DNA from: an uncultured Nitrososphaerales archaeon
Lineage (GTDB): Archaea > Thermoproteota > Nitrososphaeria > Nitrososphaerales > Nitrososphaeraceae
Direction of reading: 5' to 3'
DNA: 64,000 nucleotides
NCBI GenBank assembly: GCA_963695855.1
Contig: CAVOHZ010000008.1
Location: 320,001 to 384,000 of the forward strand
Position numbers and translations under genes: made by a program. The notes below the pieces were generated by a model. It was not told where the DNA came from, made no database searches, and saw nothing but the letters and a program-made list of their open reading frames with translations. Positions 24,330 through 61,340 of this stretch are shown here, piece after piece (within the stretch, counting starts at the first letter, position 1; each line of letters begins with the position of its first letter).

Positions 24330-25342
24330 TGCCTTGTTGCACAACTTGTTCTTCTCAACACATTTAGCTAACCAATTCTAGTCATATTATGTGAACTGGA
24401 GAAATTACAACGAATCTCTTGTTAAACGTGGTGAGGTATTACTGGATTTTGATGTTATAGATAACTGGAATACTGAACTAGAGAAGATGAATAAGGAAAA
24501 GGAAGGTAGGAAATTCGTATATCCAGATTCATTTGTCAAGTTATTGGGATACATGAGAGCATACTTTCACTTACCCTACAGACAAACTGAAGGAGTAGTA
24601 AGAGAACATGCTTCAAACACTTTGCCATCAATTCCAGATTATAGTAACATTAGCAGAAGAATAAATAGACTGGATATCAAGATTTCTGATGATATAACCA
24701 AATCTAACTTGCATGATGATAATTTTGTTATTGCAATTGATTCTACCGGTATAAAGGTATCTAAGAGGGGTGAATGGATTAGACACAAGTGGAATGTAAA
24801 AAGAGGATATCTAAAGATACATTTAGCAGTCGATATAAAAAAGAAGAGAATTCTATCATTAGATGTTACTAGTGAAGAAGTACATGATGTAAAAGTACTT
24901 CCAAAATTGGTTGATTATATAGCAATAAAACAGAATAAGGTAATAGATACTGCTATCATGGATGGTTCCTATGATAGCAACAAGATCTTTCAGTTTCTAT
25001 CATTTAAAGGCATACAACCAGCAATAAAGGTAAGAAAGAATTCTAGATGCAGAAACAAGACCAATCATTACCTTAGAAACAAGATGGTGAAAATGCAGAA
25101 GAATGATTTGCAAGAATGGAAAGATAGTGTACGCTATGGACAAAGATGGATGGTAGAATCTGTTTTTTCCTCTATGAAGAGAATGTTTGGTGAATATGTT
25201 ACTGCTATCAGGTTAGAGAACATGATAAGAGAGATAATGTTGAAAGCATCGTTGTATAACTGGTTTCAAAGTATAACTGTTACATAATTATCAATTATAT
25301 AATAATGAGAACGATTGGTTAAACGAGTTATGCAACAAACCA
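24330..25342 (+). mobile_element. IS5-family (IS903-like) element, divergent copy
   Basis: IRs TGCCTTGTTGCACAACTTG / CGAGTTATGCAACAAACCA; 8-bp TSD TAGTGTTC. Confidence 0.93.
24391..25287 (+). CDS. IS5-family DDE transposase
   Basis: Paralog of 6781-7686; IDSTG, MDGSYD, YGQRWMVESVFS. Confidence 0.95.
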   Translation: MNWRNYNESLVKRGEVLLDFDVIDNWNTELEKMNKEKEGRKFVYPDSFVKLLGYMRAYFHLPYRQTEGVVREHASNTLPSIPDYSNISRRINRLDIKISDDITKSNLHDDNFVIAIDSTGIKVSKRGEWIRHKWNVKRGYLKIHLAVDIKKKRILSLDVTSEEVHDVKVLPKLVDYIAIKQNKVIDTAIMDGSYDSNKIFQFLSFKGIQPAIKVRKNSRCRNKTNHYLRNKMVKMQKNDLQEWKDSVRYGQRWMVESVFSSMKRMFGEYVTAIRLENMIREIMLKASLYNWFQSITVT

Positions 25343-36287: not shown

Positions 36288-37418
36288 CTATTTAGATGAA
36301 ATCTTCCTATAAATTAGAAGGAATACTGCTTGAATCGTTAATGCTATAATGACAGCTAATGCAAGCCCTGTTACTTGCATAGATTTTCCTAATATTAACA
36401 TCAATGATATTTGTAAAATTTGGTAGATTATGGCACCAATTACAACACCTCTAGTATTTCCTTCACTAAGGAATCTAGAATTAATGATATAAGTAACCAT
36501 CATGGGAATAATTCCTATACTCAATATTCTTATTGCATCAAGCGAATTCTTGTAACCAGGGAAAAACAAGTCTATTATGATAGGACTTGAAATATATAGT
36601 AAGAGCGCGAGTGCAATTGATATTCCAAATCCTAAAATCCTTAACTTTGTTTTTTTATTACCGCTCGCTTCTTCTGGAACCAAATACTGAAAGAAACTGA
36701 TAGGAATCATCCCAAGAAACATTAAAAATTGAAAGCCTAATTGATAATATCCTAATATAACGTATCCAAAAATAGGACCGATAAGAATCTTATCGAAGTA
36801 CATTAACAACGCGTTTGACATATTAAAAGAATAACTGTGTAAAGAAAATTTTATTTTACTTCTAATTTCCGTGATATCTTTTTTGAAATGTTTTATTGAT
36901 AAAAAATATTTATAACTAAAGATAAAGAATGAAATTGTAAATCCAATTATTATTCCTGGGATACCTATAATGTAATATAAGGCGATGGAGAGGACTAGTT
37001 GAATTGCTCTTGCACCTACATTTGCAATTGCATATTGTTTATAGGATTTTCTACCGAGATATTCATAAATACTCATCATCCAAAAAGTCATGCCGATAAC
37101 AAAAAATCCTAATAATATGTCTTTTTGTGCGACAATTATACCTAAAACGATGCTTGATATTAAGATAACTTGATTAGCGGCAACATGTATCTTATCAAAG
37201 CCTTTGGGAATGTAAGTCGTAACAGTAGTATTGAGTCCTAATAGAGCAATACTAGATGCAAGTGATGCCATTGAAATCATATAACTAGTCTCCCCGTATT
37301 CTTCAACACTTTGTAGAGAAGCCAATAAAAGCCAGAAGCCGCCTGTAATCAGAGCACCAAGAATATTTCCAACTATTATGTGAATAAGACCCTTATTTGA
37401 TTTAATAAATTTCAGCAA
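36288..37418 (-). CDS. polysaccharide/oligosaccharide flippase (Wzx-like)
   Basis: About 12 TM segments, DKILIG...GYYQ motif. Confidence 0.8.
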   Translation of the reverse strand: MLKFIKSNKGLIHIIVGNILGALITGGFWLLLASLQSVEEYGETSYMISMASLASSIALLGLNTTVTTYIPKGFDKIHVAANQVILISSIVLGIIVAQKDILLGFFVIGMTFWMMSIYEYLGRKSYKQYAIANVGARAIQLVLSIALYYIIGIPGIIIGFTISFFIFSYKYFLSIKHFKKDITEIRSKIKFSLHSYSFNMSNALLMYFDKILIGPIFGYVILGYYQLGFQFLMFLGMIPISFFQYLVPEEASGNKKTKLRILGFGISIALALLLYISSPIIIDLFFPGYKNSLDAIRILSIGIIPMMVTYIINSRFLSEGNTRGVVIGAIIYQILQISLMLILGKSMQVTGLALAVIIALTIQAVFLLIYRKISSK

Positions 37419-37881
37419 TTTTTATGTCCCTTTTATGTATTATCATCAATAATCTTTCTCTTAATAAAATGGTTTATTTCATTTTTTGCATTATATTTTT
37501 TTAGTACATTCGTAAAAGTAATTCCAATTATTTATTCAAGTTGATTTTCTTCCTATCTTTTTATACGTTATTATTGTTATAATATAATATTACTACAAAA
37601 AATACGAAAAAAAATCTAGAGTTAAAAATAATTATCAATAATTATTGTACAAAATAGAGTTCGCCATAAATATTCAGAATCCTTTTTCATATAAATGAAA
37701 GGGAATTTTTTAAAAAAACTAAATTACATAATTAATATCGGAATAAATTCTGTTATGCATGGCGTATTGGGAATTTCTAACTTGGTTGTGGTAATCGTAT
37801 TAAGTAGAATAACTGTAAAAAAGTCATAGGAGTATTTTTAAATAGTAGACTAAATGTAAAAGGATTCTGGGAGTAAGTTAG

Positions 37882-40800
37882 ATGAAAAATTCCGATAAGA
37901 AATTTAAGGTTTTATTTGCTGGAATATTAATATTTATCTCTTTTCTTGTGTTAAACTCTTTTACATATTTATCAGTTAATGCTCAATCCCAAAGCACTTT
38001 TCTTACCCTTTCAGGATCGGATTTTCTTGATGTAAAAAATAGTGAACGATTGCAATTAGACAAATTTACTCTTTCTACATGGTTTTCTACAGATAAACAA
38101 GATTTCATAGATCCAGGGATGATTGTAAACAAGGGAGGTATGAATGATGATGCTCCTGGTAACAACATGAATTACGGTTTTTGGATAACACCAACCGAAC
38201 TTTTAGAGGGTGGTTTTGAGACAAAGTCAGGTACTAATCTCTTTATAACATCTAAAAATAAATTTAACGATGGTAATTGGCATCATGCATTTCTTACCTA
38301 TGATGGTTCTGTTTTGAAACTGTACGTAGATGGTAACGAAGAGGGTCAGCTCTCAGTGAAAGCAGTCCCTGACAACACAGGTACTCAACCGATAAGAATA
38401 GGTGCGAATTCATTTGCAGATGACAAATTTTTCACTGGAAAGGTGGATGAAGTTATGCTTTGGGATAGAGCATTATCGTTAGAAGAAATATCTAATTCCG
38501 ATAACTTTGACGAATTCCCATTAAATGGAAGAATTCTTTATCTGTCATTTTCATCAGTCTCTCCAATACAATCTACCTATAATTATGCCCCATACAAAAC
38601 TTTTGACGGAAGTGAAAAGGATGAAATTGATGAAGATGAGCAATTATTCCATCTAAGTAATTTTTCGGCAGCAAGTTGGTTTAGAAGCGATAGAATTGAC
38701 CATGATAAGGTGGGAATATTATTAAACAGGGGTGGATTTGGATCTGAACTACAAAATGAAAATCTAAATTATGGTATATGGTTAAATCCATCAGAGACTA
38801 TTGAAGCTGGTTTTGAAACTTCTTCCGGTACAAATGTTTTTGTGACCACATTAGATAAATTTAATGACGGGCTTTGGCATTACGCTGTATTAACGTACGA
38901 CGGCAAGACGTTAAAATTATATGTTGATGGTGTTCTTGTAGATGATAAAATAACATCAGGAATACTGCCAGATTTGGCAGGCGATACAAAATTTGTTATT
39001 GCTGGTGACTCTGTCGCAGATGATAAATTCTTTAAGGGTGATCTTGATGAGATTCGAGTATGGAATAGAGCTATATCTTCGGATGAAGTTTTAAGTGGAT
39101 TTAAAAATAATATATTTAATATTGATGGACAAATATTCTATGAATCGTACTCAGGTGAAGGTCCACCTCCACCACCACAACAAGAAGAATGTCCAGCAGG
39201 TGAACACTTTGATACTACCACAAACGCATGTGTCCCAGACTTACCAACTCCACCACCACAACAAGAAGAATGTCCAGCAGGTGAACACTTTGATACTACC
39301 ACAAACGCATGTGTCCCAGACTTACCAACTCCACCACCACAACAACAAGAATGTCCAGCAGGTGAACACTTTGATACTACCACAAACGCATGTGTCCCAG
39401 ACCTACCAACTCCACCACCACAACAACAAGAAGAATGTCCAGCAGGTGAACACTTTGATACTACCACAAACGCATGTGTCCCAGACTTACCAACTCCACC
39501 ACCACAACAACAAGAGTGTCCAGCAGGTGAACACTTTGATACTACCACAAACGCATGTGTCCCAGACCTACCAACTCCACCACCACAACAACAAGAGTGT
39601 CCAGCAGGTGAACACTTTGATACTACCACAAACGCATGTGTCCCAGACCTACCAACTCCACCACCACAACAAGAAGAATGTCCAGCAGGTGAACACTTTG
39701 ATACTACCACAAACGCATGTGTCCCAGACCTACCAACTCCACCACCACAACAAGAGTGTCCAGCAGGACTACACCTTGAGAATGGTCAGTGCGTCCCAGA
39801 TTTACCACCTCAACTAACCGGAATAGGCTTTCTTTTGGTAGTTACTAACGTTATGAATGATGATAGTGGTACAAAACAGGCTTCTGACTTTACTGTTAAT
39901 GTTAATGGGAATGGACCCTTGCCAAAAACATTCAGCGGTATTCAATCTCCAACAGCAACAAGTGTTGCCATTAATCAAGGAGACTACTCTGTAAGCCTTA
40001 AGGATAACTTAGGATATGAAACAGATTTCCTATACAATTGTGCTGGTACTATACACGTTGAAGAAACACGTGTTTGTGTTATCAATATAGATGATCCAAC
40101 GCCACCACCTCCACCACAAGGATGTCCAGGCGGAGAGCATCTTGATGAGAATGGGCAGTGCGTCCCAGATTTACCTCCTCCACCAGGAACTGGATTTCTT
40201 TTAGTAATTACAGATGTTGTTAACAATAATGGTGGTACAAAAACAGCTTCCGATATTGATATTACTGTTAATGGTAACAATCCTGTTCCATCTAATTTCA
40301 AGGGATCTCAAACACCATTAGGGAAAATTATTGCGCTGACTGAGGGGGGATTCTCTCTAACTGTCAATAATAATTTTGGATATCAAACAAAATTCCTATA
40401 TGATTGTGCCGGTACTGTCAAAGCTCAAGAAACCCATGTTTGTGTTATAAATCTGGATGATCCGATCACAACCGTTACTTCAGGAACAGCACAGGGATGT
40501 CCAGCAGGCCAACACTTTGATGCTACCACAAATGCATGTGTCCCAGAGTTACCTCCTCCACCACAGGGATGTCCAGCAGGACAACACTTTGACCAAACAA
40601 CACAAACATGCGTCCCAGACTTACCTCCTCCACCACAAGGATGTCCAGCAGGACAACACTTTGACCAAACAACACAAACTTGCGTCCCAGAGTTACCTCC
40701 TCCACCACAAGGTACATTTGTTCCTTTCAACTTTGCGGCAGCGGGTGATTGGAATTGCAACTCAAATTCTAAAAAAACAGTACAATCGATGCTTTCTAAA

Positions 40801-42408
40801 GATCCAGAAATTGTACTAGGACTTGGGGATTTCTCCTATACCTCGACTGCTGATTGTTGGTTAGATGTTATTACTCCTCTCAATGATAAAATGAAAATTA
40901 CAATAGGAAATCATGATAGTGACGAAGATGAAGGTCCTGAAATTACTGAACAATTCCTCGATCATTTCAATCTAGACAAACAGTATTATTCATTTATTCA
41001 GGGAAATACTTTATTTATATCGATGTCTACTCAGGTATCATTTTCTGAAAATTCGGAACAATTTAATTTTGTAAAAAGTGAACTAGAAAAAGCTGCAAAG
41101 GATAATAGAATCCTTTGGAAAGTAGTATACTTCCACAAACCTGCATACACTGCACCCAGTAAACATGAAGGGTTAGTGAGTTTACGTGATACCTATCACC
41201 CATTATTTGACCAATACAAAGTAGATCTGGTTCTTTCAGGTCATAATCACAATTATCAGAGAACTTTCCCAATTCACTTCAATCCAGATGATTCATCTAA
41301 ACCGATTATAGTTAATACTGACCAGAATACATATAACAACGTTGGAGCCCCAATTTTTATAATATCTGGAACGGGTGGAGTTTCGTTGTATGCATTGGGT
41401 GCCCAGCCAGACTTTAATGTAAAACAATTTGGAAAATTTGGACTTCTCAATATAGATGTGACAGGAAATAATGGTGAAAAGTTAGTTGGCACATTTGTTG
41501 ATAATGATGGTAATCAATTAGATCAATTCACTATTACAAAATCCATTGGACCATCTTCTGTGTCTTCTTTGGCAATAAATTCACAACAATCTGGAAGTAA
41601 AGGGGTTGATGTGTTTGGAGTGAATAAAATCTATCCCACCAAACTTGGAGGAGAAGAATGGTCCATGAACATGGAAAATCTGAAATCTGATTCAAGATTA
41701 AAGGTTGGTGCAAGTACAGGAGATATCATAAAGAACCAAGACGGGTCTTGGTCTCCTGTGTCTCAAGATAAGGTTATACTTAATGTATACACATCATCTG
41801 TTGGAGAATTCAACAAAGAAAATGTGACTACTTTCAATCTAAAAGAACTAGCCAAAAAAGGTCATTGGTTTAAAGAAAATGATTGGTTGAATATCGAAAT
41901 GGGTGGATATTTTAAATTGAATTCTACTGATGATCTTTCACTTGGATATAGTTTCATCCCAAGATCAATAGACCATAGTAATGATCATGGTGGATGTGGA
42001 GGCGCAACTCCGGTATTCACTTTTGGCTTCAACGGTGTATTGACGGCTAAAAAAGAGATGTGGTTTTCAAGTTTGATAAATTCTGCAGCGGAAAAAATTG
42101 GAGAACTATCACCGTCAATTGTCGGTAAATGGATAGGAATGAAGGCAGTTATCTATAACCTTCCCAACAACGATGTAAAGCAGGAGTTTTGGATGGACAA
42201 AGAAAACAATGGAAAATGGGAAAAGGTCTATGAATTTACCGATAAAGGCGGATTTGGTGTTACCGGCGAAGCAGGACCTGAAAAATGTGGAGGAGAATGG
42301 GACCAGAGATATACATGGGGTTCTCCTAAGGTCACATTTAAATGGAATCAGGCTGATGTCGAGTTTAAGAATCTTTCCGTACGTGAAATAGTACCTCCAA
42401 AAGAATGA
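37882..42408 (+). CDS. 1508-aa modular secreted protein: 2x LamG, Cys/Pro repeats, 2x beta-sandwich, metallophosphoesterase, unassigned C-terminal domain
   Basis: Signal peptide; DG.WH....TYDG..LKLYVDG and F.G..DE...W.RA twice; AAGDW, GDFSY, GNHD, SGHNH. Confidence 0.92.
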   Translation: MKNSDKKFKVLFAGILIFISFLVLNSFTYLSVNAQSQSTFLTLSGSDFLDVKNSERLQLDKFTLSTWFSTDKQDFIDPGMIVNKGGMNDDAPGNNMNYGFWITPTELLEGGFETKSGTNLFITSKNKFNDGNWHHAFLTYDGSVLKLYVDGNEEGQLSVKAVPDNTGTQPIRIGANSFADDKFFTGKVDEVMLWDRALSLEEISNSDNFDEFPLNGRILYLSFSSVSPIQSTYNYAPYKTFDGSEKDEIDEDEQLFHLSNFSAASWFRSDRIDHDKVGILLNRGGFGSELQNENLNYGIWLNPSETIEAGFETSSGTNVFVTTLDKFNDGLWHYAVLTYDGKTLKLYVDGVLVDDKITSGILPDLAGDTKFVIAGDSVADDKFFKGDLDEIRVWNRAISSDEVLSGFKNNIFNIDGQIFYESYSGEGPPPPPQQEECPAGEHFDTTTNACVPDLPTPPPQQEECPAGEHFDTTTNACVPDLPTPPPQQQECPAGEHFDTTTNACVPDLPTPPPQQQEECPAGEHFDTTTNACVPDLPTPPPQQQECPAGEHFDTTTNACVPDLPTPPPQQQECPAGEHFDTTTNACVPDLPTPPPQQEECPAGEHFDTTTNACVPDLPTPPPQQECPAGLHLENGQCVPDLPPQLTGIGFLLVVTNVMNDDSGTKQASDFTVNVNGNGPLPKTFSGIQSPTATSVAINQGDYSVSLKDNLGYETDFLYNCAGTIHVEETRVCVINIDDPTPPPPPQGCPGGEHLDENGQCVPDLPPPPGTGFLLVITDVVNNNGGTKTASDIDITVNGNNPVPSNFKGSQTPLGKIIALTEGGFSLTVNNNFGYQTKFLYDCAGTVKAQETHVCVINLDDPITTVTSGTAQGCPAGQHFDATTNACVPELPPPPQGCPAGQHFDQTTQTCVPDLPPPPQGCPAGQHFDQTTQTCVPELPPPPQGTFVPFNFAAAGDWNCNSNSKKTVQSMLSKDPEIVLGLGDFSYTSTADCWLDVITPLNDKMKITIGNHDSDEDEGPEITEQFLDHFNLDKQYYSFIQGNTLFISMSTQVSFSENSEQFNFVKSELEKAAKDNRILWKVVYFHKPAYTAPSKHEGLVSLRDTYHPLFDQYKVDLVLSGHNHNYQRTFPIHFNPDDSSKPIIVNTDQNTYNNVGAPIFIISGTGGVSLYALGAQPDFNVKQFGKFGLLNIDVTGNNGEKLVGTFVDNDGNQLDQFTITKSIGPSSVSSLAINSQQSGSKGVDVFGVNKIYPTKLGGEEWSMNMENLKSDSRLKVGASTGDIIKNQDGSWSPVSQDKVILNVYTSSVGEFNKENVTTFNLKELAKKGHWFKENDWLNIEMGGYFKLNSTDDLSLGYSFIPRSIDHSNDHGGCGGATPVFTFGFNGVLTAKKEMWFSSLINSAAEKIGELSPSIVGKWIGMKAVIYNLPNNDVKQEFWMDKENNGKWEKVYEFTDKGGFGVTGEAGPEKCGGEWDQRYTWGSPKVTFKWNQADVEFKNLSVREIVPPKE
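39163..39810 (+). repeat. intragenic tandem repeat, 7 near-identical units of about 81 bp plus one variant
   Basis: Encodes CPAGEHFDTTTNACVPDLPTPPPQQ(Q)E(E); related units at about 40100-40185 and 40495-40710. Confidence 0.97.
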
Positions 42409-42683: not shown

Positions 42684-43856
42684 TTGAGGCTGGGTCATAA
42701 TTATTCCATTTTCATAACGAACAAAGCTAGTTTATTGGTGTATGATGTTTTGGTGAAAAACCATCTAAACCAACAAACTAGCACAGCAGAAGAGATCAAC
42801 ATCTATTCTAATTAGTATTTTGTATTTGATTGGCTTGATTCATTGGCCACATAATAATAGATGGGGAGGAGGACGTGGGAGACCATATGTCTATTCTCCT
42901 ACTGTTATTTTGAGATGCTTTATAGTGCGTATATGGTTCAGATTAGATTCTAATAGAGCATTGTATGAATACCTTGCTATGGAGATGCCATATACAACAA
43001 AAAGATAACGAAAGTATGTGGATTGTCAAGAGTACCTAGTAGAAGAACATTTGATAGGCGTCTTGTAACAATATCTAAAGATATTAAAAACAGAATAACT
43101 ACAATGGGCAAACTTTTTGTACGTGATAAAATAGTTGATCCGCATATTCTTTCAACAGACAGTACACTTATCAAGACTAAAGGCTATGTCTGGCATAAAT
43201 CATCTATGACTGAAGGAGTAGTACCACGTTCTGGTATTGATACAGATGCAATGTAGGGATTCAGTCATACAAAGGGTTGGATATTTGGATACAAATTACA
43301 TTTGATATCCAGTACTGGTTCTATAATTGTACCTTCGGCAGCAGATTTTACAACTGCTAACATACCTGACAATCAAATGTACAGTATATTGACAGCAAGT
43401 CTACCTGTTACAATAATTAAAAGAACATTATTCATGTCTGCAGATCCTGGATACGATGATCATGAATTATATGATCTCAGTACAGATATGGGATTTAGAT
43501 TGGTATTTCCAGTAAAGAGATATAAAAATACACATGCTGACAGGATAAAACTGATAGAATTTTATGAATCTAATGTTGGACAGGCTATCTATTCCTTAAG
43601 AAGTATATCAATTGAACTATTGATAGGTCATATCAAATCGTTGTTCAGGATAGATCCATTACCTGTCAGGGGATATGTCAAGAGTTGTGCATCAGTATTA
43701 TTGTCAGTACTGTTATACCAGATACTTGTCTATTATAACCATAAGATCAATAAAGATAATCCTATGGCAATCAAATACATACTAGGAACATAACTATTGA
43801 CTATATACTATTGTTAACATTACCATATTTATTATATGAATTATGACCAGTCTCAA
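42684..43856 (+). mobile_element. DDE-type IS (IS5/IS4-superfamily-like) with pseudogenised transposase
   Basis: IRs TTGAGGCTGGGTCATAATT / AATTATGACCAGTCTCAA, CTAA on both flanks; fragments PSRRTFDRRL, STDST, GYKLH, ADPGYD. Confidence 0.85.
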
Positions 43857-50359: not shown

Positions 50360-51382
50360 CAACTACTACATGCTGTTCTGAATCTGGATATGTCTCCTAT
50401 CTCAGAACTAATGAGCATTGCAGAAAAATAGTCTATTCCTGTCATACTCATTAGTATCTTTACGTTTTCATTTTGAGATGCCTCAGTGGATATCTGTTTT
50501 TCAATCTGTTTGATTTCAGAATTTAGAAATTCAATACTGTGAATGTAGTTTACAAGTTGAATCTGGTCATTACCTTTTAATTCGATATTCTTTAGTCATT
50601 GTATACCTTTTAAACCGAATATATGTCCATAATTACATGTTAGATCATATTTATCAAGTAAGGAATGTACTCTATTCATAACTCTGGTTCTATCAGATAC
50701 TAGGTTTATTCTCAGTCGTAGTAGAGATCTATCTTCTCTTACCTTATCTGGAGCAATATATGATTCTGCAATCAAGTTAGATCGTAGTAGATGTGCTAAT
50801 GTTCGTGCATCGAGTTTATCTGTCTTTATCCTTGCTTCTGCTATTGCCTTGGTCTTCATTGGATTTGCCAACTTAACATCTATTCCATGTTTCTCAAATG
50901 CCTCGTATGTCTTGAGCCACATGTTGGCTGTTGATTCGCAAACAGCCTGACATTTTCTGTTAATATACTTTTTACCCAAATTAGAAGCAAATCTTTTTGC
51001 TTCTTCTAGTGTATTTTCATATTTTGTTTCCTCTATTATGGAACCATCTTTATCTGTAATACATACGACGCAATTTCTCTTTCCAATATCTACTGCAATA
51101 TAGTAATCATCATCATTACTATTTTTTGATTCTATTATTTTTTCTATTTTTATTCTCTTTCTCACCTCCTTTTTTTATTATGACACTATTATCAGTATAC
51201 CAACTAACCAGCAAAGCTGCAAACATCTATCAGAGCTCTTTTGATGGCTCATTTATACAGCAGCTAACATACATCCCCATTCAACAAGCAAGATCTTATC
51301 ACAGAAAGATAGATCACGCACAACAAGGGGTTAGTCAGTTGGATAAGAGAATAGATAACAAGAAAACACTTTTACATGTATT
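50360..51382 (-). mobile_element. IS110/IS1111-type element 2 (3'-truncated; transposase pseudogene 51165 to about 50360)
   Basis: AVDIG, CEST, KTDKLDAR (DEDD); in-frame TGA at 50596 then ...MSMTGIDYFSAMLISSEIGDISRF; left end TG|AATAC-ATGTAAAA. Confidence 0.88.
51200..51342 (-). ncRNA. putative bridge/seek RNA of IS110 element 2
   Basis: Outer stem CCAACUGACUA/UGGUUAGUUGG enclosing two internal-loop hairpins (CCCC/GGGG, AGCUGC/GCAGCU); loop segment 51279-51288 identical to the left junction 51380-51389. Confidence 0.78.
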
Positions 51383-51390
51383 CAACAAGG

Positions 51391-52408
51391 TGCTCTGTTG
51401 CGTAACTCGTCTAGATAATCATCTATTTTTTGTTACTAAGGTAAATTATGTAACACTTATACTTTGAAACCAGTTATACAAAGACGCTTTCAGTATTATC
51501 TCCTTTATCATGTTCTCAAATCTTATAGCAGTAACATATTCTCCAAACATTCTCTTGATACAGGAAAAGACTGTTTCTACTATCCATCTCTGTCCATAGT
51601 CTACACTATCCTTCCATTGTTGTAGATTGGTTTTCTGTGATTGTACGTTCTTGTTTCTCAAATAATGGTTTGTCTTTCTATACTTGGCATTCTTTCTTAC
51701 CTTAATTGCTGGTTGAATTCCTTTAAATGATAGAAATTGAAAATTCTTGTTACTGTCATAGGCACCATCCATAATGGCAGTTTCAACTACTTTGTTCTGT
51801 TTTATAGTTATATCACCCACTAATTTAGGTAATACTTTTCCATCATGTACTTCTTCACTGGTTACCTGCAGTGATAAGATTCTCTTGTTTTTTATGTCAA
51901 CTGCTACATGTATCTTTAGATAACCTCTCTTCACATTCCATTTATGTCTAATCCATTCTCCTCTGTTTGTAACTTTAACACCAGTAGAATCAATTACAAT
52001 TACAAAATTATTATCATGTTGTAAAATGGATTTATCCTGATCATCATCATCTATTTTGATATCTAATCTGTTTATTCTTCTGCAAATCCCGCTATAATCT
52101 GGAATTGATGGTAACGTATTTGCAGCATGAGCTCGTACAATACCCTCAGTTTGTCTGTATGGTAAATGAAAATATGCTCTCACATATCCAAGTAGTTTGA
52201 TGAATGAATCTGGATATACAAATTTTCTACCTTCCTTGTCCTTATTCATCTTCTCTAGTTCAGAATCCCAGTTATCTATAACATCAAAATCAAGTAATAC
52301 CTCACCACGTTTAACAAGAGATTCATTGTACCTCTTCCAGTTCACATGTATTATGACTAGAATAGGTTAGCTAAATGTGTTAGGAATAGCGAGTTATGCA
52401 ACAAAGCA
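51391..52408 (-). mobile_element. IS5-family (IS903-like) element, close copy of 6726-7749
   Basis: IRs TGCTCTGTTGCGTAACTCG / CGAGTTATGCAACAAAGCA; 8-bp TSD CAACAAGG. Confidence 0.95.
51446..52345 (-). CDS. IS5-family DDE transposase
   Basis: Near-identical to 6781-7686. Confidence 0.95.
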   Translation of the reverse strand: MNWKRYNESLVKRGEVLLDFDVIDNWDSELEKMNKDKEGRKFVYPDSFIKLLGYVRAYFHLPYRQTEGIVRAHAANTLPSIPDYSGICRRINRLDIKIDDDDQDKSILQHDNNFVIVIDSTGVKVTNRGEWIRHKWNVKRGYLKIHVAVDIKNKRILSLQVTSEEVHDGKVLPKLVGDITIKQNKVVETAIMDGAYDSNKNFQFLSFKGIQPAIKVRKNAKYRKTNHYLRNKNVQSQKTNLQQWKDSVDYGQRWIVETVFSCIKRMFGEYVTAIRFENMIKEIILKASLYNWFQSISVT

Positions 52409-52438
52409 CAACAAGGCACAACAAGGCACAACACAGCA
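52409..52438 (+). repeat. three tandem 10-bp stubs of the IS5 terminal IR
   Basis: CAACAAGGCA CAACAAGGCA CAACACAGCA; reverse complement of TGCCTTGTTG at 24330. Confidence 0.8.
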
Positions 52439-52688
52439 TAAAATGATATTGATATTTATTTCAAAAAATTTGTAAAAATATACTGAATTTGATTTATTTT
52501 TACATTATACGTTTTACAAGAATGTTGCCTCATAAACTTTTTATCATTTTTCATATGATAAGACAATTTCCACATGACCAGAGATCTGTTCCTTCAATTC
52601 TATAATGTTGAATTAATAATTCGAGGATCTTAAATCCCTCTGGAAAAGTCATACACAGAAATTGAAGGATTTTTAAATTCTATATTAA

Positions 52689-53627
52689 GAGCCTATCCCA
52701 AAATTAACCTCCTATGAACAATTATGCTATTAGCTATTAGCCAATTGTACGAGACAGAGATAGTTCTCATCCTTCTTTTCATATCTTGTAAATAATTTCA
52801 TCATGAATCGATTATGCCAAGAATTTGTTCTCTCTACCACCCATCTTCTTGCAGGATGTCTCTTGTTGAGTTTCTTTTCTTCTCTTCTGTGTCGTATATG
52901 TGGAATATATCCTCTTTTGGTAATTTCTTGTTCTACTTCCTTGGAATGATATGCTTTGCTTTGTCAAGACATAGATTCTGCTTTTTCTTATTCTTCTTCT
53001 TGTTTCTATATTTTGCTATTGATGATGAAGGTGGTGGTCTTTTGATAACAATATTATCAATTGTATTTGTTGCAACAGTAACATCATGAGTATATGCAGA
53101 TGTTATAACAGTTGAAAGGGGAATACCATCTTTATCTGTTAAAATATGTCTTTTACTACCTAATTTACTTCTATCTGTAGTAGGATTATGACCTGTCATC
53201 GCCCCCCTAAAGGCGATTTTATAGAGATGCTATCAAGTGACTGCCAGTTCCATCTGATTCCTCTTTTGTTTTCATATATTTTTAGCAATCTAAACCGTAG
53301 TCTCTCAAAAATACCTGACTGCCTCCATTCTTGAAATCTTCTATGACATGTAGAACCAGAACCATATTCTTTGGGTAACATTTTCCATTGACATCCAGTT
53401 CTCAAGACAAACAGGATACCATCAAATACTTCTCTGTAAGGAATAATGGGACGACCTATTGTATTCTATGGTTTTTCAAAAGGGAAAATATTTGTAATTT
53501 CATTCCAAAGATCATCTGGAATAAGTGTAATTGTTCCAACATACTTTCTACTCCTACACAAACAAACATGATCGGATACGATATAAAACCAAAGAGCTAT
53601 ATTCTTATCTATTTTTGGGATAGGCTC
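52689..53627 (-). mobile_element. IS5-family (IS427-like, split ORF) element, degraded
   Basis: IRs GAGCCTATCCCAAAA, TAA on both flanks; RTGCQW..LP, G-run frameshift site, GSKRH..TD; further breaks in orfB. Confidence 0.9.
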
Positions 53628-54072
53628 TAAAGTAAAGCAGGAAAGGGTGCGTATTTAATTAGATTATTATTTTCCCTGAGACAATATCTTACATCTTTTT
53701 CTAATGAGTCGATTCGATTTCCTACAAACTTCCTACTAAACTTTATAATCTCATTAGGGTCAGAAAAGAATTTCATGAATTTATACACTTCATAAATCCT
53801 TTTATAATAATAAAATTTATCCTAATACAGTTAATATAATAACATTGTTCTAATAAAAAAGGAAATAATTTAGTAAAAGCATTTAGTAAATATGAATTAA
53901 TATTTGATCATGTAACTTTCAAAATGAACTCTGCTTTGGTTGGATCGTTTTTGATTAATTTTCTCCAAATCTAAAAGGTTAGTAGATGAATAACAGGTCT
54001 TGACATTACCTTCATTAACAAATTAAATTAAATTAAATTATAATTTATTTCATTAATCAAACCCATTTACTC

Positions 54073-54799: not shown

Positions 54800-54917
54800 A
54801 TTATATTATTCTACAATTTTTTATAACAAACATATTTTATTAATATTATTAGATTTAAACAATCAGAAAATCAGGCTCTGACGATATGAAAATCTTTTAG
54901 TCTGTTTCATTACTGTA

Positions 54918-55042
54918 TGTTGGCTAGGTTCAAAATTAACATACTCCGTATGAGAGTGAGGCTCTGACTGAACCGTATCTGTGAAGTGGCTATCATAGTA
55001 CCCTTCGAGGGTGGATGGATGTTTGCCACCTGTTAGCCAACA
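54918..55042 (+). ncRNA. putative bridge/seek RNA of IS110 element 1
   Basis: Outer stem UGUUGGCUA/UAGCCAACA; target loop closed by GGUUCA/UGAACC with AAAUUAACA and AGGCUCUG; donor loop closed by GUGGC/GCCAC with AUGGAUG. Confidence 0.85.
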
Positions 55043-55070
55043 AATAAAAAAAGAAGGTGAATAAAAATAA

Positions 55071-56151
55071 TTGAATCATCTTGGAATAGATGTTGGAAAG
55101 AAAAAATGCAGCGCAGCACTAAAAGATGATAGAGGCAAGACACTGGATGAATTCTTCTTTGGTAACAATTCTGATGGAATATTAGAACTGATTGAAAGGA
55201 TACACAATCATGGAACAAAAAAATGTAATGCAGTACTGGAATCTACAGGAAACATGTGGATGAGAATACATGATATATTGGAAGATAATGGAATAGATAC
55301 AGTACTAGCAAATCCATACAGAACAAAGATAATAGCACAAGCAAAGATAAAATCAGATAAACTTGATGCACGTATATTATCTGATCTGCTGAGAACTGGA
55401 TTGGTATACGAGTCATATGTACCTGTAAAGAAAGGAATTCAGAGAAAAAAGAAGTCTGGTCAGACATAGAATAGTCTTGTCTAGAACCAAGACAAAACTT
55501 GCAAACAAGGTACATGCTATTTTAGACAAATATGAGTACAGAACAGAGCTGACAGACATATTCGGTAGATCGGGAATTGAGTGGCTAAAATCACTCTCAG
55601 TTTCACCAATAGACAGGATAATACTGAATACAACACTAACATCCATAGAATCGATAGATAACCAGATAGAAATAGTATCAAAAGAGATAGCAAAATACGC
55701 ATGGAAGGATAGTCAAGATGTAAAGATACTTCTCAGCATGACAGGAATAGACGTATTTTCTGCAATGCTGATATCAACGGAAATAGTGGATATCACCAGA
55801 TTCTCTACACCATGGAAACTTGTTAGTTATGCAGGATTATCTCCATCAACAAGAGAATCATCTGGAAAAACAAAAACAGGTAGAATAACCAAACAAGGAT
55901 CACCATTATTAAGATGGATACTAGTACAGTGTTCATTATCTGCAGTAAGACATGACCGTCACATGAGAACCTTCTATGAAAGAATCAAACAGAGAAAGGG
56001 ACATGGGAAAGCAATAGTTGCAACAGCAAAGGAGGTGCTTATTATAATATGGTACATGCTAACAAGACACCAATTGTATAGATACATGAATAGAACAAGG
56101 TATGAACAGAAACTGGAAAGTCTGAAGAAGAGTGGATCGCAAGAAAGGTAA
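55071..56151 (+). pseudogene. IS110 DEDD recombinase with one frameshift near 55430
   Basis: GIDVG, LEST, KSDKLDAR; C-terminal YAGLSP...SSG, ITKQGS..LRW; AAGGTGA RBS upstream. Confidence 0.92.
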
Positions 56152-56314
56152 CAATTAAACAAAAAAGACAACGACCTCAGAGAACAAGGATGTCATATAT
56201 AGCGGAGGCTATTGCTAATAATGCTTAATAGATAGAAAAACATAACAAAATGAGGCTAAACAGGATAGAAAAGATAACCAGCATACAGGTAGATTTTCAT
56301 GGATGTTAATTTAA

Positions 56315-57233
56315 GAGCCTATCCCAAAAATAGATAGGAATATAGCTCCTTTGTTTCTTATCATATCTGATAATGTTTAAGAGTGAAAAATATGTTAGAA
56401 GTATTACATGTATTCCAGATGATCTTTGGAATGAAATTACAAATATTTTCCCTTTTGAAAAACCATAGAATACAATAGGGCGTCCCATTATTCCTTACAG
56501 AGAAGTATTTGATGGTATCCTGTTTGTCTTGAGAACTGGATGTCAATGGAAAATGTTACCCAAAGAATATGGTTCTGGTTCTACATGTCATAGAAGATTT
56601 CGAGAATGGAGAGAATCAGGTATATTTGATAAATTATGGAGCAGATTATTAAAATTATATGATTTAAAGAAAGGAATAAAATGGAACTGGCAGTCACTTG
56701 ATAGCATCTCTATAAAATCGCCTTTAGGGGGGCGATGACAGGTCATAATCCTACTACAGATAGAAGTAAATTAGGTAGTAAAAGACATATTTTAACAGAT
56801 AAAGATGGTATTCCCCTTTCAACTGTTATAACATCTGCATATACTCATGATGTTACTGTTGCAACAAATACAATTGATAATATTGTTATCAAAAGACCAC
56901 CACCTTCATCATCAATAGCAAAATATAGAAACAAGAAGAAGAATAAGAAAAAGCAGAATCTATGTCTTGATAAAGCATATCATTCCAAGGAAATAGAACA
57001 AGAAGTTATCAAAAGAGGATATATTCCACATATACGACACAGAAGAGAAGAAAAGAAATACAGCAATAGACATCCTGCAGTAAGAAGATGGGTGGTAGAG
57101 AGAACAAATTCTTGGCATAACAGATTCAGAAAATTATTTACAAGATATGAAAAGAAGGATGAGAACTATCTTGGTCTTGTACAGTTAGCAAATAGCATAA
57201 TTGTTCATAGGAGGTTAATTTTGGGGTAGGCTC
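56315..57233 (+). mobile_element. IS5-family (IS427-like, split ORF) element
   Basis: IRs GAGCCTATCCCAAAA / TTTTGGGGTAGGCTC, TAA on both flanks; orfA with in-frame TAG, G-run junction, orfB 56735-57229 (DKAY, RWVVER..W...R.L..RYEK). Confidence 0.92.
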
Positions 57234-57596
57234 TAAGTACTTTGTTATCTGACCTACCCTATCAATCTGACAAAAATTTTTTGTCTAGTAAAATATTTTT
57301 AATAAATTCAAAATCAATATCTTTTTAAATTAAGTGAAATAGTAACAAATACTGATTTTACAAAAAAAATTTATAAAGAAAAGCATAAAAGAAATTTTTA
57401 GAATTGACAATTTAATAGCTCGATATATGGCAGTCTTGGATAATGTCTGTTACATTTATTGATTCGTCTTTTTTAGTAGAAAATTCTACCTGAGTAATAA
57501 ATTACAAAATTTATAACTAAATAATTAATCTGAATAATTCTAGATTAAATGTTATTTAGGTTTGTATCCCAATACTAATATAGATTTAATCCACAT

Positions 57597-59507
57597 TTGA
57601 ATTTGAAATTAATAATGAACATCATGATTAATATTATATTTTTAAAATTATTTTCATTATTATCAGTTTCATTCTTAATATTATTGTCAATGACTTTTCC
57701 TATTAAGAGTTTTTCCTTTACACAACAAAATTTTGAACAACCTGCTATGGATCAGCCGGCTATCGCGCAATTACCTTCACCAGATGAAAAAAATAAAATA
57801 GGTTACATAATATTAACAACAAATGTTATTAATGATAATGGAGGTAATAAACAACCCTCCGATTTTACAATAAACATTCATGACACCTCAGCATTTCCTT
57901 CTTCATTGGAAGCTGTACCATCACCACAAGTTCAAATTATTTCTGTTAATGAAGGTAAATACTCAATTTCTGTAAATAATGTTAATGGATATAATATATC
58001 TCTTGAAAACCAATGCGAAGGTGTTATAAATTATGGTGAAGTGAGATCTTGTCTTATTATTGCAGATGATGATGGTAATATTTCTTCTACTTCAAAATTA
58101 CCGATATTACCGCTGTCCCTATCTGACTTACTTCTCCCTGACCTTGCAGGAAAAGATCAGGATATTAAACCTAAAATTGCAGCGATACCAAAACCAGCAG
58201 ATCCGTCTAAAGTAGGATTTCTGTTAATATCAACAAATGTTATTAATGATAATGGAGGTAATAAACAACCCTCCGATTTTACAATAAACATTCATGGTAC
58301 CCCAGCATTTCCTTCTTCATTTAAAGCTGCTTCATCGAAGATGATCCAAGTAGTTGCTGTTTCGGAGGGACAATACTCTGTGTCAGTCGCTAATAGTGTA
58401 GCTGGATATCAATCATTCCTGCAATTTGAATGTCAAGGTCAGATTAATCCAAACGAGATAAAAACTTGTTTAATTACATTAAATGATATTTCATCGCCTA
58501 TACCTTGTCCACAAGGACAACACCTTGAGAATGGTCAATGTGTTCCAAATCCACCAGAACCCTGTCCACAAGGACAACACCTTGAGAATGGTCAATGTGT
58601 TCCAAATCCACCAGAACCCTGTCCACAAGGACAACACCTTGAGAATGGTCAATGTGTTCCAAATCCACCAGAACCCTGTCCACAAGGACAACACCTTGAG
58701 AATGGTCAATGTGTTCCAAATCCACCCCCTACAGGAGGGGCATTTCCAGTACAAGGTGTCATCTGGATGTATGATTCAAAACAAACATTAATCAATGACA
58801 TCTCACTGCCATCAGGAGAGACACATCCCATCGATAAAGTGTTATTGTCTAGTGGAGCTAGTGGTGTAAACGCACATATTATTAAGAATGGTTGGCTAGA
58901 AGTGCAATCGGGTGGTGGAAATGGTAGGGTATATTGGGATTATCATGAATTACCACAATTTTCACAATTAGATACAGCTGGTTTCAACACTGTAATGACA
59001 GGAACATTTAAGCTAAAACCTGGAATAGAGAATTTATCAATAAAAGACGGGAATCATGGTACAGATGGATGGATTTTGGATGGTAAATTGGTGTTTGGTG
59101 GATTCGGATTCTCAATTCATAGGACTGAAGTTCAATCGAAGGTAGAATACTGGCATAACCTGCAGGGTCAGGAAGTCGCTTCCCAATATCCAAACGGTAT
59201 CATACTACAAGACGACAAAGAGTACAAATTCTTCTCAACTATGAGAACTGATAGGACAAATAATGAGGTAGTACTCAATGTGTGGTTAGATTTCGGCGAT
59301 GGTAAAGGATGGGTCCTAGTTATGAAAGATAGGAAGTGGGGTATGTCTGGATGGAATCCAGATGGTATTCCAAATGGAGACGATACAACAGAAATAGAAA
59401 AGGGTCCATCATTTATTAAAAAACATCATATTTGGACTAGAGCAAATGGATCGGGACATTTACCAATCAAAGATATAAGAATAGGTACTATAAGCTTTAT
59501 TTCCTAA
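57597..59507 (+). CDS. modular secreted protein: 2x beta-sandwich, 4x Cys/Pro repeat, unassigned beta-rich C-terminal domain
   Basis: Signal peptide; TNVINDNGGNKQPSDFTINIH twice; CPQGQHLENGQCVPNPPEP x4. Confidence 0.88.
   Translation: MNLKLIMNIMINIIFLKLFSLLSVSFLILLSMTFPIKSFSFTQQNFEQPAMDQPAIAQLPSPDEKNKIGYIILTTNVINDNGGNKQPSDFTINIHDTSAFPSSLEAVPSPQVQIISVNEGKYSISVNNVNGYNISLENQCEGVINYGEVRSCLIIADDDGNISSTSKLPILPLSLSDLLLPDLAGKDQDIKPKIAAIPKPADPSKVGFLLISTNVINDNGGNKQPSDFTINIHGTPAFPSSFKAASSKMIQVVAVSEGQYSVSVANSVAGYQSFLQFECQGQINPNEIKTCLITLNDISSPIPCPQGQHLENGQCVPNPPEPCPQGQHLENGQCVPNPPEPCPQGQHLENGQCVPNPPEPCPQGQHLENGQCVPNPPPTGGAFPVQGVIWMYDSKQTLINDISLPSGETHPIDKVLLSSGASGVNAHIIKNGWLEVQSGGGNGRVYWDYHELPQFSQLDTAGFNTVMTGTFKLKPGIENLSIKDGNHGTDGWILDGKLVFGGFGFSIHRTEVQSKVEYWHNLQGQEVASQYPNGIILQDDKEYKFFSTMRTDRTNNEVVLNVWLDFGDGKGWVLVMKDRKWGMSGWNPDGIPNGDDTTEIEKGPSFIKKHHIWTRANGSGHLPIKDIRIGTISFIS
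58503..58727 (+). repeat. intragenic 57-bp tandem repeat x4
   Basis: TGTCCACAAGGACAACACCTTGAGAATGGTCAATGTGTTCCAAATCCACC repeated in frame. Confidence 0.97.
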
Positions 59508-60867: not shown

Positions 60868-61340
60868 TTGAGGCTGGGTCATAATTATTTTTCCATTTTC
60901 ATAACGAATAAAGCTAGTTTATTGGTGTATGATGTTTTGGTGAAACACTATACAAACAAACAAACTAGCACAGAAAAGATCCACGTCTATTCTAATTAGG
61001 ATTTTGTATTTGATTGGTTTGATCCGTTGGCCACATAATAATAATAGAGGAGTAGGAGGAGGGCATGGTAGACCATATGTCTATCCTCCTACTGTTATAC
61101 TACGATGTTTTATAGTATGTGTATGGTTCAGATTGTATTATAACAGAGCATTGCATGAATATCTGGCAATGGAGATAGCATATAACAGAAAGGTAATGAA
61201 AGGATGTGGAATGTCAAGAGTACCTAGCAGAAGAACATTTGATAGACGTCTTGCTACACTATCTATCTAATGATATTAAAAATAGGAATACTACAATGGG
61301 TGAAGTTTTTGTTCATGAAAAAATAATCGAACCATACAAA
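60868..61340 (+). mobile_element. 5' fragment of the same IS as 42684-43856
   Basis: Same left IR TTGAGGCTGGGTCATAATT and GRPYVY.PTVILRCFIV fragment; truncated. Confidence 0.85.

Follow-up and report, generated by a model that had tools for sequence, protein, structure and literature searches.

In IS621, the left target guide is located on the 5' side of an RNA loop and the right target guide on its 3' side (PMC11208158), and PMC11208160 describes the left guide as pairing with the target's bottom strand and the right guide with the top strand. Elements of the IS1111 type are characterized in PMC11187229 by subterminal inverted repeats (IRs) of 11-13 bp, terminal extensions of 7 nt on the left and 3 nt on the right, and a GL-P----S(t)G motif. 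According to the same source, an RNA located upstream of the transposase gene is rare in IS1111 elements, ISMtsp17 being one case and ISHvo10 and ISAcp5 having both arrangements. In parallel, insertions of IS4321 and IS5075 in the IRs of Tn21 are cited in PMC11208160. Here we describe an archaeal insertion sequence (IS) of this kind, a truncated IS110-family element (element 2) on the minus strand at 51382-50371 of a 64,000-nt stretch of DNA (the window; genome G000, C8:320001-384000) from the 3.55-Mb genome of an uncultured Nitrososphaerales archaeon. With a probability of about 0.88, it represents the left end of a defective, IS1111-like IS that encodes a bridge/seek RNA of ~147 nt aimed at the IRs of IS5 elements.

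Element 2 has a long non-coding end that holds a structured RNA with two internal loops. This RNA lies upstream of the gene, within the ~227 nt that precede the start codon; the non-coding end on the downstream side is ~120 nt long. The candidate bridge/seek-RNA core (51199-51344, minus strand) consists of a basal stem surrounding a target-binding and a donor-binding stem-loop. The original prediction, made from the window alone, had proposed four stems, and all of them were found on the minus strand: CCCC 51330-51327 with GGGG 51278-51275, GAUCU 51315-51311 with AGAUC 51296-51292, AGCUGC 51265-51260 with GCAGCU 51220-51215, and GAGC 51250-51247 with GCUC 51236-51233. They are likewise all part of the minimum-free-energy fold, which adds a basal stem CCAACUGAC/GGUUAGUUGG (z = -2.58; 1 of 200 shuffled sequences folds as well). 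The motif GAUGUUU closes the second, donor loop of both element 2 and the other IS110 element of the window (element 1), as had also been proposed.

A covariance model (R1) made from 12 leaders, with 147 positions and 28 pairs, gave 173-180 bits for the three copies of the genome (173.4 bits for the window leader) and found the leaders of element 1 and of all five distant relatives, which share 39-53% amino acid (aa) identity. It also recovered the mini-elements of element 1 described below and three decayed leader remnants of the element 2 type with no recombinase gene nearby, at C10 895,850-895,992, C10 1,289,763-1,289,880 and C6 12,596-12,728 (62.9, 34.6 and 27.8 bits, respectively). In an alignment of 20 leaders, 94.8% of the cells were paired versus 71.1% after shuffling, and 22 of the 28 pairs had changed on both sides. 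The covariation score reached 0.532 versus 0.171 in shuffled alignments, none of 500 shuffles scoring as high, and slid controls remained at 0.02-0.09.

Loop 1 holds a complement to each target strand, the core dinucleotide TG being shared by the two. The right target guide GUUGUGCG on its 5' side (51317-51324, minus strand) is the complement of TG+CACAAC in the top strand, the first core base giving a G.T wobble, and its variable bases covary with the right flanks of relatives. The left target guide CUUGUUG on the 3' side (51279-51288, minus strand) has the same sequence as CTTGT+TG in the top strand; the AAU after it corresponds to the bases that open the left end. These are the guides that had been read from the window, UUGUUGUGCG from the 5' and CUUGUUG from the 3' side of the loop. 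The 3' side equals the left flank plus the core in five variants: CUUGUUG beside CTTGTTG, UUUGUUG beside TTTGTTG, UCUGUUG beside TCTGTTG, UUUUGUUG beside TTTTGTTG, and UGUGUUG beside TGTGTTG. In the same way, the 5' side is the reverse complement of the core plus the right flank, in the variants CACAAC, CGCAAC, CGTAAC, CATAAC, TCCAAC and TCTAAC.

The full 13-mer specified by these guides, CTTGTTGCACAAC, occurs 17 times in the genome, against 0.058 occurrences expected from base composition. All 17 are perfect targets that stand empty in the left IR of IS5 copies, and the same IR interior follows each of them. The targeted IS5 elements have an IS5-type DDE transposase (PF01609 and PF13737; 272-281 bits with NF033579), terminal IRs and 8-bp target-site duplications (TSDs), the latter in 5/5 copies checked. 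One perfect, unoccupied 13-mer is found in the window at 24333-24345 (C8 344333-344345), as predicted, within the left IR of IS5 copy B (24330-25342, plus strand), which begins at 24330; the TSD of this copy, read from the 13-mer contexts, is TAGTGTTC. Two details of the prediction were not borne out. The IS5 IRs read CACAACTT, which does not support the proposed AA extension of the target, and the idea that copy B had split an integrase was not confirmed, no integrase-like frame being seen on its far side among stop-to-stop frames of at least 30 aa judged by eye.

Full-length copies, on whose right flanks the prediction could have failed, were found in the same genome. Whole-genome blastn identified two of them on C10, 86% identical and inverted, flanking a single IS5 body. 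The left copy reads TGCCTTGTTG/AATACATG...CATAGATG/CCCAACTCATTTTGCC..ACACATTTAGCTAACC, so that its right flank runs CCCAACTC...ACACATTTAGCTAACC after TGCCTTGTTG and the element. The right copy reads ..TAGTTTGTTG/AATACATG...CATAGATG/CATAACTCGTTTAAAC, the element being placed between the tip T(A)GTTTGTTG and CATAACTCGTTTAAAC. The two right flanks are the interiors of the left and right IRs of the IS5, whose transposase gene starts ~55 nt further on. Both IRs of one IS5 are thus split between bases 10 and 11, with TG common to both junctions and insertion without target duplication.

The 371-aa recombinase of a full-length C10 copy (P0001), used as a query, yielded 20 loci in other Nitrososphaerales assemblies, 13 of them at 76-91% identity. 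In 10/10 loci having a left flank, TG[CT][CT][TCG]TGTTG, the first 10 nt of an IS5-type repeat, directly precedes the left end. Nine loci have a right end, and their right flanks mostly lead into IS5 or MITE-like ends (MITE, miniature inverted-repeat transposable element). In three of the nine (L002, L004 and L007), the flank continues as the interior of an IS5 IR followed by an IS5 transposase gene; in two (L008 and L015), it continues as C[AG]CATCTATGAAAATCG..., apparently a MITE whose end is of the same kind; and in two (L006 and L010), it begins with CCTAAC. The observation made on the window is confirmed and its interpretation as IS5-end targeting is supported. Five Nitrosopumilus-type relatives, the distant ones mentioned above, are laid out in the same way, and their unrelated guides fit the flanks of each, as in L014, where GUCUUCCCA matches the flank TGGGAAGAC at 9/9 positions.

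Two further observations were made on these loci. A distant relative in a Nitrosopumilus metagenome-assembled genome (L011, 2700-2815 and 4117-4170) lies where a (TTG)n microsatellite meets a (TGTGGT)n one, and its guides UUGUUGUUG and ACCCACACA fit the two repeats. In addition, two short contigs (L009 and L018; 1.8 and 1.2 kb) that binning assigned to a Gemmatimonadales bacterium contain this archaeal element at 89-91% aa identity, which is probably a binning error and not a transfer.

Guides and flanks were compared in a table of fixed columns, from which L012 (a probable duplicate of L005) and L021 (too divergent) were left out. Left guides matched their flanks at 80 of 84 positions over 12 insertion events (shuffled mean 74.0; 48 of 20,000 shuffles as high) and right guides at 48 of 60 positions over 10 events (shuffled mean 39.8; 16 of 20,000 shuffles as high). 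The table was used in place of a comparison of the best match anywhere in the leader for cognate and non-cognate flanks, which was noisy (means of 7.1 vs 5.8 and 7.4 vs 5.5, with a non-cognate maximum of 9). These results bear on the hypothesis that the protein picks the target, the leader being only a 5' untranslated region or a regulatory structure whose loops match the flanks incidentally. The 5' side of loop 2 pairs only weakly with the donor, as this hypothesis would allow, and RNA guidance is here deduced from sequence. Guide and flank bases nevertheless change together within and between clades, P0001 passes the NCBIfam model NF033542 'IS110 family RNA-guided transposase' (250.5 bits, cut-off 140), and RNA guidance is established for homologues according to PMC11208160 and PMC11187229; a purely protein-determined target is hence very improbable.

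A corresponding relation is predicted between the second loop and the ends of the element. Its 3' side UGAUAGAUGUUU (51221-51232, minus strand) holds the putative left donor guide AUAGAUG, which is identical, at 7/7 positions, to the right-end terminus ...CATAGA+TG of full-length copies. Its 5' side UGUAUAAAU (51251-51259, minus strand; UGUAUAUGU in the C10 copies) contains UGUAU, which is complementary to ATACA in the left end AATACATG, a partial pairing. The left end (51345-51382, minus strand) opens with AATACATGTAAAAG at 51382 and comprises AATAC followed by the 11-bp subterminal IR ATGTAAAAGTG. The 11-bp subterminal repeats are ATGTAAAAGTC/GACTTTTACAT, with GACTTTTACAT at the right end of the C10 copies, and the terminal extensions are TGAATAC (left) and AGA (right), provided that the core TG is assigned to the left end.

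The insertion sites, the covarying RNA structure and the concordance and covariation of guides and flanks, all seen in the sequences, fit a mechanism in which expression of the RNA, its binding by the protein and the chemistry would follow IS621 and ISEc11. The recombinase of an intact element, with its DEDD domain and Ser-Gly motif, would bind the leader RNA. The two guides of loop 1 would together specify positions 4-16 of the terminal IR of the resident IS5, and the second loop would pair with the joined ends of the element itself (...CATAGA-TG-AATACA...). Recombination at the shared TG core would then set the element between bases 10 and 11 of the IS5 IR, in one orientation and with no target duplication.

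Several points weigh against IS5-end targeting by the leader RNA. The right flanks of the C10 copies are each one base off the perfect target of the guide (CCCAAC and CATAAC), and no 8-bp duplication was found for the IS5 between them (ATATACGG vs GCATTTTT), which indicates that the locus has been rearranged. Two of the nine relatives with a right end (L003 and L005) have a variant one (...AAG) and flanks that are not IS5-like, and the right flank of L008 fits its guide at only 3 of 6 positions. The shuffles of guides and flanks ignore the relatedness of the elements, and the alignment used for covariation was fitted to the model, which favours structure somewhat. Rfam was also tried as a source of a family for the leader, and a scan of the whole window at gathering thresholds returned 0 matches. 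The donor pairing on the 5' side of loop 2 covers just 5 nt; discontinuous donor pairing is known for IS621 too, as reported in PMC11208160. Finally, transcription evidence for the leader was not seen in sequencing runs, which contributed only contigs of relatives. Two libraries recorded as RNA had 0 cover over 51181-51360, which says nothing on expression either way. Seventeen runs were listed, with small shares (at most 0.15) and all as contigs, from which starts and ends are unreadable, and the four examined (X1, X2, X11 and X14) held only contigs of relatives that are 90-99% alike.

The flank of the window element itself shows a second layer of insertion. Directly before its left end lies CCTTGTTG (51390-51383, minus strand), a remnant IS5 IR tip made of the left target and the core TG, which fits the left half of the predicted target. 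The same 8 nt double as one TSD copy of another IS5, copy C (51391-52408, minus strand), which abuts the left end of element 2 and matches PF01609 and PF13737 (DDE_Tnp_1 and DDE_Tnp_1_5) and NF033579 (281.5 bits). CCTTGTTG is found on both sides of copy C, and 8-bp TSDs are present in 4/4 sister copies. Beyond it are three tandem 10-nt IS5 IR tips, TGCTGTGTTG, TGCCTTGTTG and TGCCTTGTTG (52409-52438, minus strand), the last 8 nt of which constitute the second TSD copy. Without copy C and one TSD, the sequence reads ...TGCTGTGTTG TGCCTTGTTG TGCCTTGTTG/AATACATG. The restored junction TGCCTTGTTG/AATACATG implies that an IS5 IR tip precedes the window element too and that copy C arrived later; it landed in the 10-nt tip beside an element already in place.

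This nested arrangement could also be read in the reverse order, with IS5 elements inserting next to IS110 ends. Copy C did insert exactly at the junction of the tip and the left end, with CCTTGTTG as its TSD, and in L006 an IS5 IR starts 7 nt past the right end of the IS110 element, the other end of this IS5 not being found within the locus. In the C10 copies, L002, L004 and L007, however, it is the IS5 IR that is interrupted, with the first 10 nt on one side of the element and the rest, followed by the IS5 transposase gene, on the other. Only insertion of the IS110 element into the IR gives this arrangement, and the reverse order is accordingly regarded as highly unlikely. IS5 may still prefer sites beside interrupted IR stubs, or the tandem tips may be footprints of excision.

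The copy in the window is a dead relic. On the minus strand, its left end is followed by the structured leader, a ribosome-binding site, a GTG start at 51165 and an open reading frame (ORF) of 189 aa (50596-51165) encoding the N-terminal DEDD domain of the recombinase (PF01548, E 2.3e-27), the only domain retained. Compared with P0001, the frame stops at a TGA that replaces a Trp codon of the full-length copy. A further stretch (50371-50595, minus strand) is homologous to the recombinase as far as about residue 275 of 371. The full-length copies have no homology beyond 50371, the sequence past this point being a match to an unrelated repeat, and both the C-terminal Transposase_20 part and the right end are missing, the loss of the latter having been recognized at the outset. 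The nonsense codon together with the loss of the C-terminal domain and the right end means that this copy is unable to excise.

Could the relic nevertheless still act? Its leader might be transcribed, for instance as a read-through product of IS5 copy C, which lies on that strand too, and guide the C10 recombinase in trans. All its helices are intact relative to the C10 copies, with one compensatory change (GAUCU/AGAUC vs GACCU/AGGUC), and the target guides are the same in both. Moreover, seven transposase-less mini-elements of the element 1 type keep a complete leader, so that leaders do persist without a linked gene. On the other side, transcription evidence is lacking as noted above, loop 2 of the window leader differs from that of the C10 copies at 2 bases, and a DNA divergence of 14% from them suggests an old, decaying copy. 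Such activity in trans is therefore considered rather unlikely for the window copy.

Element 1 (54881-56305, plus strand) shares ~42% aa identity with element 2, and its recombinase gene lies in two frames. It has the same RNA architecture with different guides, which match the ends of a different DDE element and of its MITEs. Its guide AAACUUAACA is found beside TGTTAAGTT (TG-TTAAGTT) in three copies, the window copy has AAAAUUAACA beside TGTTAATTT (TG-TTAATTT), and one mini-element has GGUCCUG beside GGTCCTG. The sequence GGCTC-TG-TTAAGTTAAG is the terminus of many genomic elements of ~710 bp and ~118 bp, and one variant of the element 1 target has 124 matches in the genome at up to 3 mismatches. 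The target also ends a ~950-bp element of the window (56299-57250), whose ORF matches DDE_Tnp_1 / DDE_Tnp_1_2; this match rejected an assignment of the target element to IS6. A 729-bp copy of the target element contained no ORF longer than 120 aa. The two paralogues had been proposed to be programmed against different IS families. The guides of element 1 do match the ends of a different element, but both targets are of the DDE_Tnp_1 type by Pfam and not clearly different families. Both paralogues thus aim at the ends of other transposons.

The ~950-bp DDE_Tnp_1 / DDE_Tnp_1_2 element is present in the window as two inverted copies (52683-53636 and 56306-57239) that are ~94% identical, and element 1 is inserted in the end-repeat of the right-hand copy. 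Seven transposase-less mini-elements of 318-355 bp were also observed, each with an element-1-type left end, a complete two-loop guide RNA and a right end. They are located on C8 (~113,700-114,040 and 187,900-188,230), C10 (1,354,500-1,354,850, ~1,746,100-1,746,460 and 1,407,600-1,407,960) and C3 (465,560-465,920 and ~37,350-37,680), all at the same kind of target, GG[CT]C[CT]-TG / TTAA[GC]TTAAG. Their make-up suggests non-autonomous derivatives of IS110 elements with a guide RNA of their own.

IS110 insertions may inactivate IS5 copies or use them as safe havens. A broader and doubtful extension, to which we attach little weight, is that an IS1111-like bridge-RNA lineage of ammonia-oxidising archaea has specialised in transposon terminal repeats and forms a self-sustaining network of transposons against transposons that limits the spread of IS5. 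Were this the case, guides would co-diversify with the IS5 repeat variants listed above (CACAAC to TCTAAC), each insertion would sever the outermost 10 bp of a repeat and disable the IS5 copy, and the same lineage would have yielded mini-elements without a transposase, each with a guide RNA of its own and mobile in trans.

Other repeats were also found in the window. Long tandem arrays with in-frame units of 81, 72 and 57 nt are found at 39082-40722 and 58445-58726. They belong to two large ORFs (37882-42408 and 57597-59507) and code for a recurring motif that contains Cys. In addition, a ~380-bp repeat is present as two direct copies (42697-43077 and 60884-61265) of 79-91% identity, 18.2 kb apart.

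As to classification, P0001 contains PF01548 and PF02371 and aligns to IS621 (8wt6_A, E 3.4e-12), in agreement at the D, E, D..D and SG positions. The corresponding pairs are IAVDIGK/IGIDTAK, CESTA/IEATG, KTDKLDAR/KTDTVDAR and YQSGNS/YESGSS, in which the D-E-D-D residues and the Ser of the SG motif are taken by us to be catalytic. The GL-P----SG motif reads GLCPTIYQSG. Together with the 11-bp subterminal repeat, the 7/3-nt extensions and the order of the guides, this motif makes element 2 IS1111-like. In a plasmid tblastn search with P0001, the best match was a haloarchaeal IS110-family gene at 36% identity and IS4321 reached 22%, values that are weak for placement in a subgroup.

Targeting of IRs by IS110/IS1111 elements in bacteria and natural reprogramming have already been described, so that the member from a soil ammonia-oxidising archaeon is new and the mechanism is not. 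No report of bridge RNAs in ammonia-oxidising archaea or of IS5-IR targeting in archaea was found in the literature, and the supplementary tables of PMC11208160 and PMC11187229 may hold these elements. The locus offers a clean natural archaeal example of RNA-guided recombinases aimed at other mobile elements. Its guide variants, found beside matching target variants in one genome and in relatives, constitute a ready-made data set on specificity for a TG core, an IS1111 guide order and an upstream RNA gene, and part of the nested IS structure of IS-rich soil archaeal genomes is thereby explained.

As described in PMC11208160 and PMC11208158, IS621 shares with element 2 a two-loop RNA at the left end, the strands paired by the left and right guides, a 2-nt core and a recombinase with DEDD and Ser residues. 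Element 2 departs from it by the reversed order of the guides, a TG and not a CT core, and subterminal repeats of 11 bp and not 2-3 bp. The order in its loop 1, with the top-strand complement ahead of the bottom-strand match, is that given for IS1111 in PMC11187229. According to this source, the IS1111 elements ISEc11 and ISXne4 resemble element 2 in the GL-P----S(t)G motif and in natural reprogramming between close relatives, and their non-coding region is downstream of tnp, the usual IS1111 trait, whereas that of element 2 is upstream, an unusual position yet one with precedent. IS4321 is similar to element 2 as a DEDD element with subterminal IRs that occupies a fixed position and orientation inside the terminal IR of another transposon. 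P0001 aligned to annotated IS4321 transposases over 90% of its length with just 22% aa identity, and element 2 differs in its archaeal host, its IS5 IR target and an RNA region located upstream and not downstream of the gene. Finally, IS1383, also cited in PMC11208160, reportedly targets the IRs of IS1384 in Pseudomonas putida H (Muller et al., 2001). Judged by the title of that report, it belongs, like element 2, to the IS110 family and is specific for the IR of another IS, the one being bacterial and the other archaeal.

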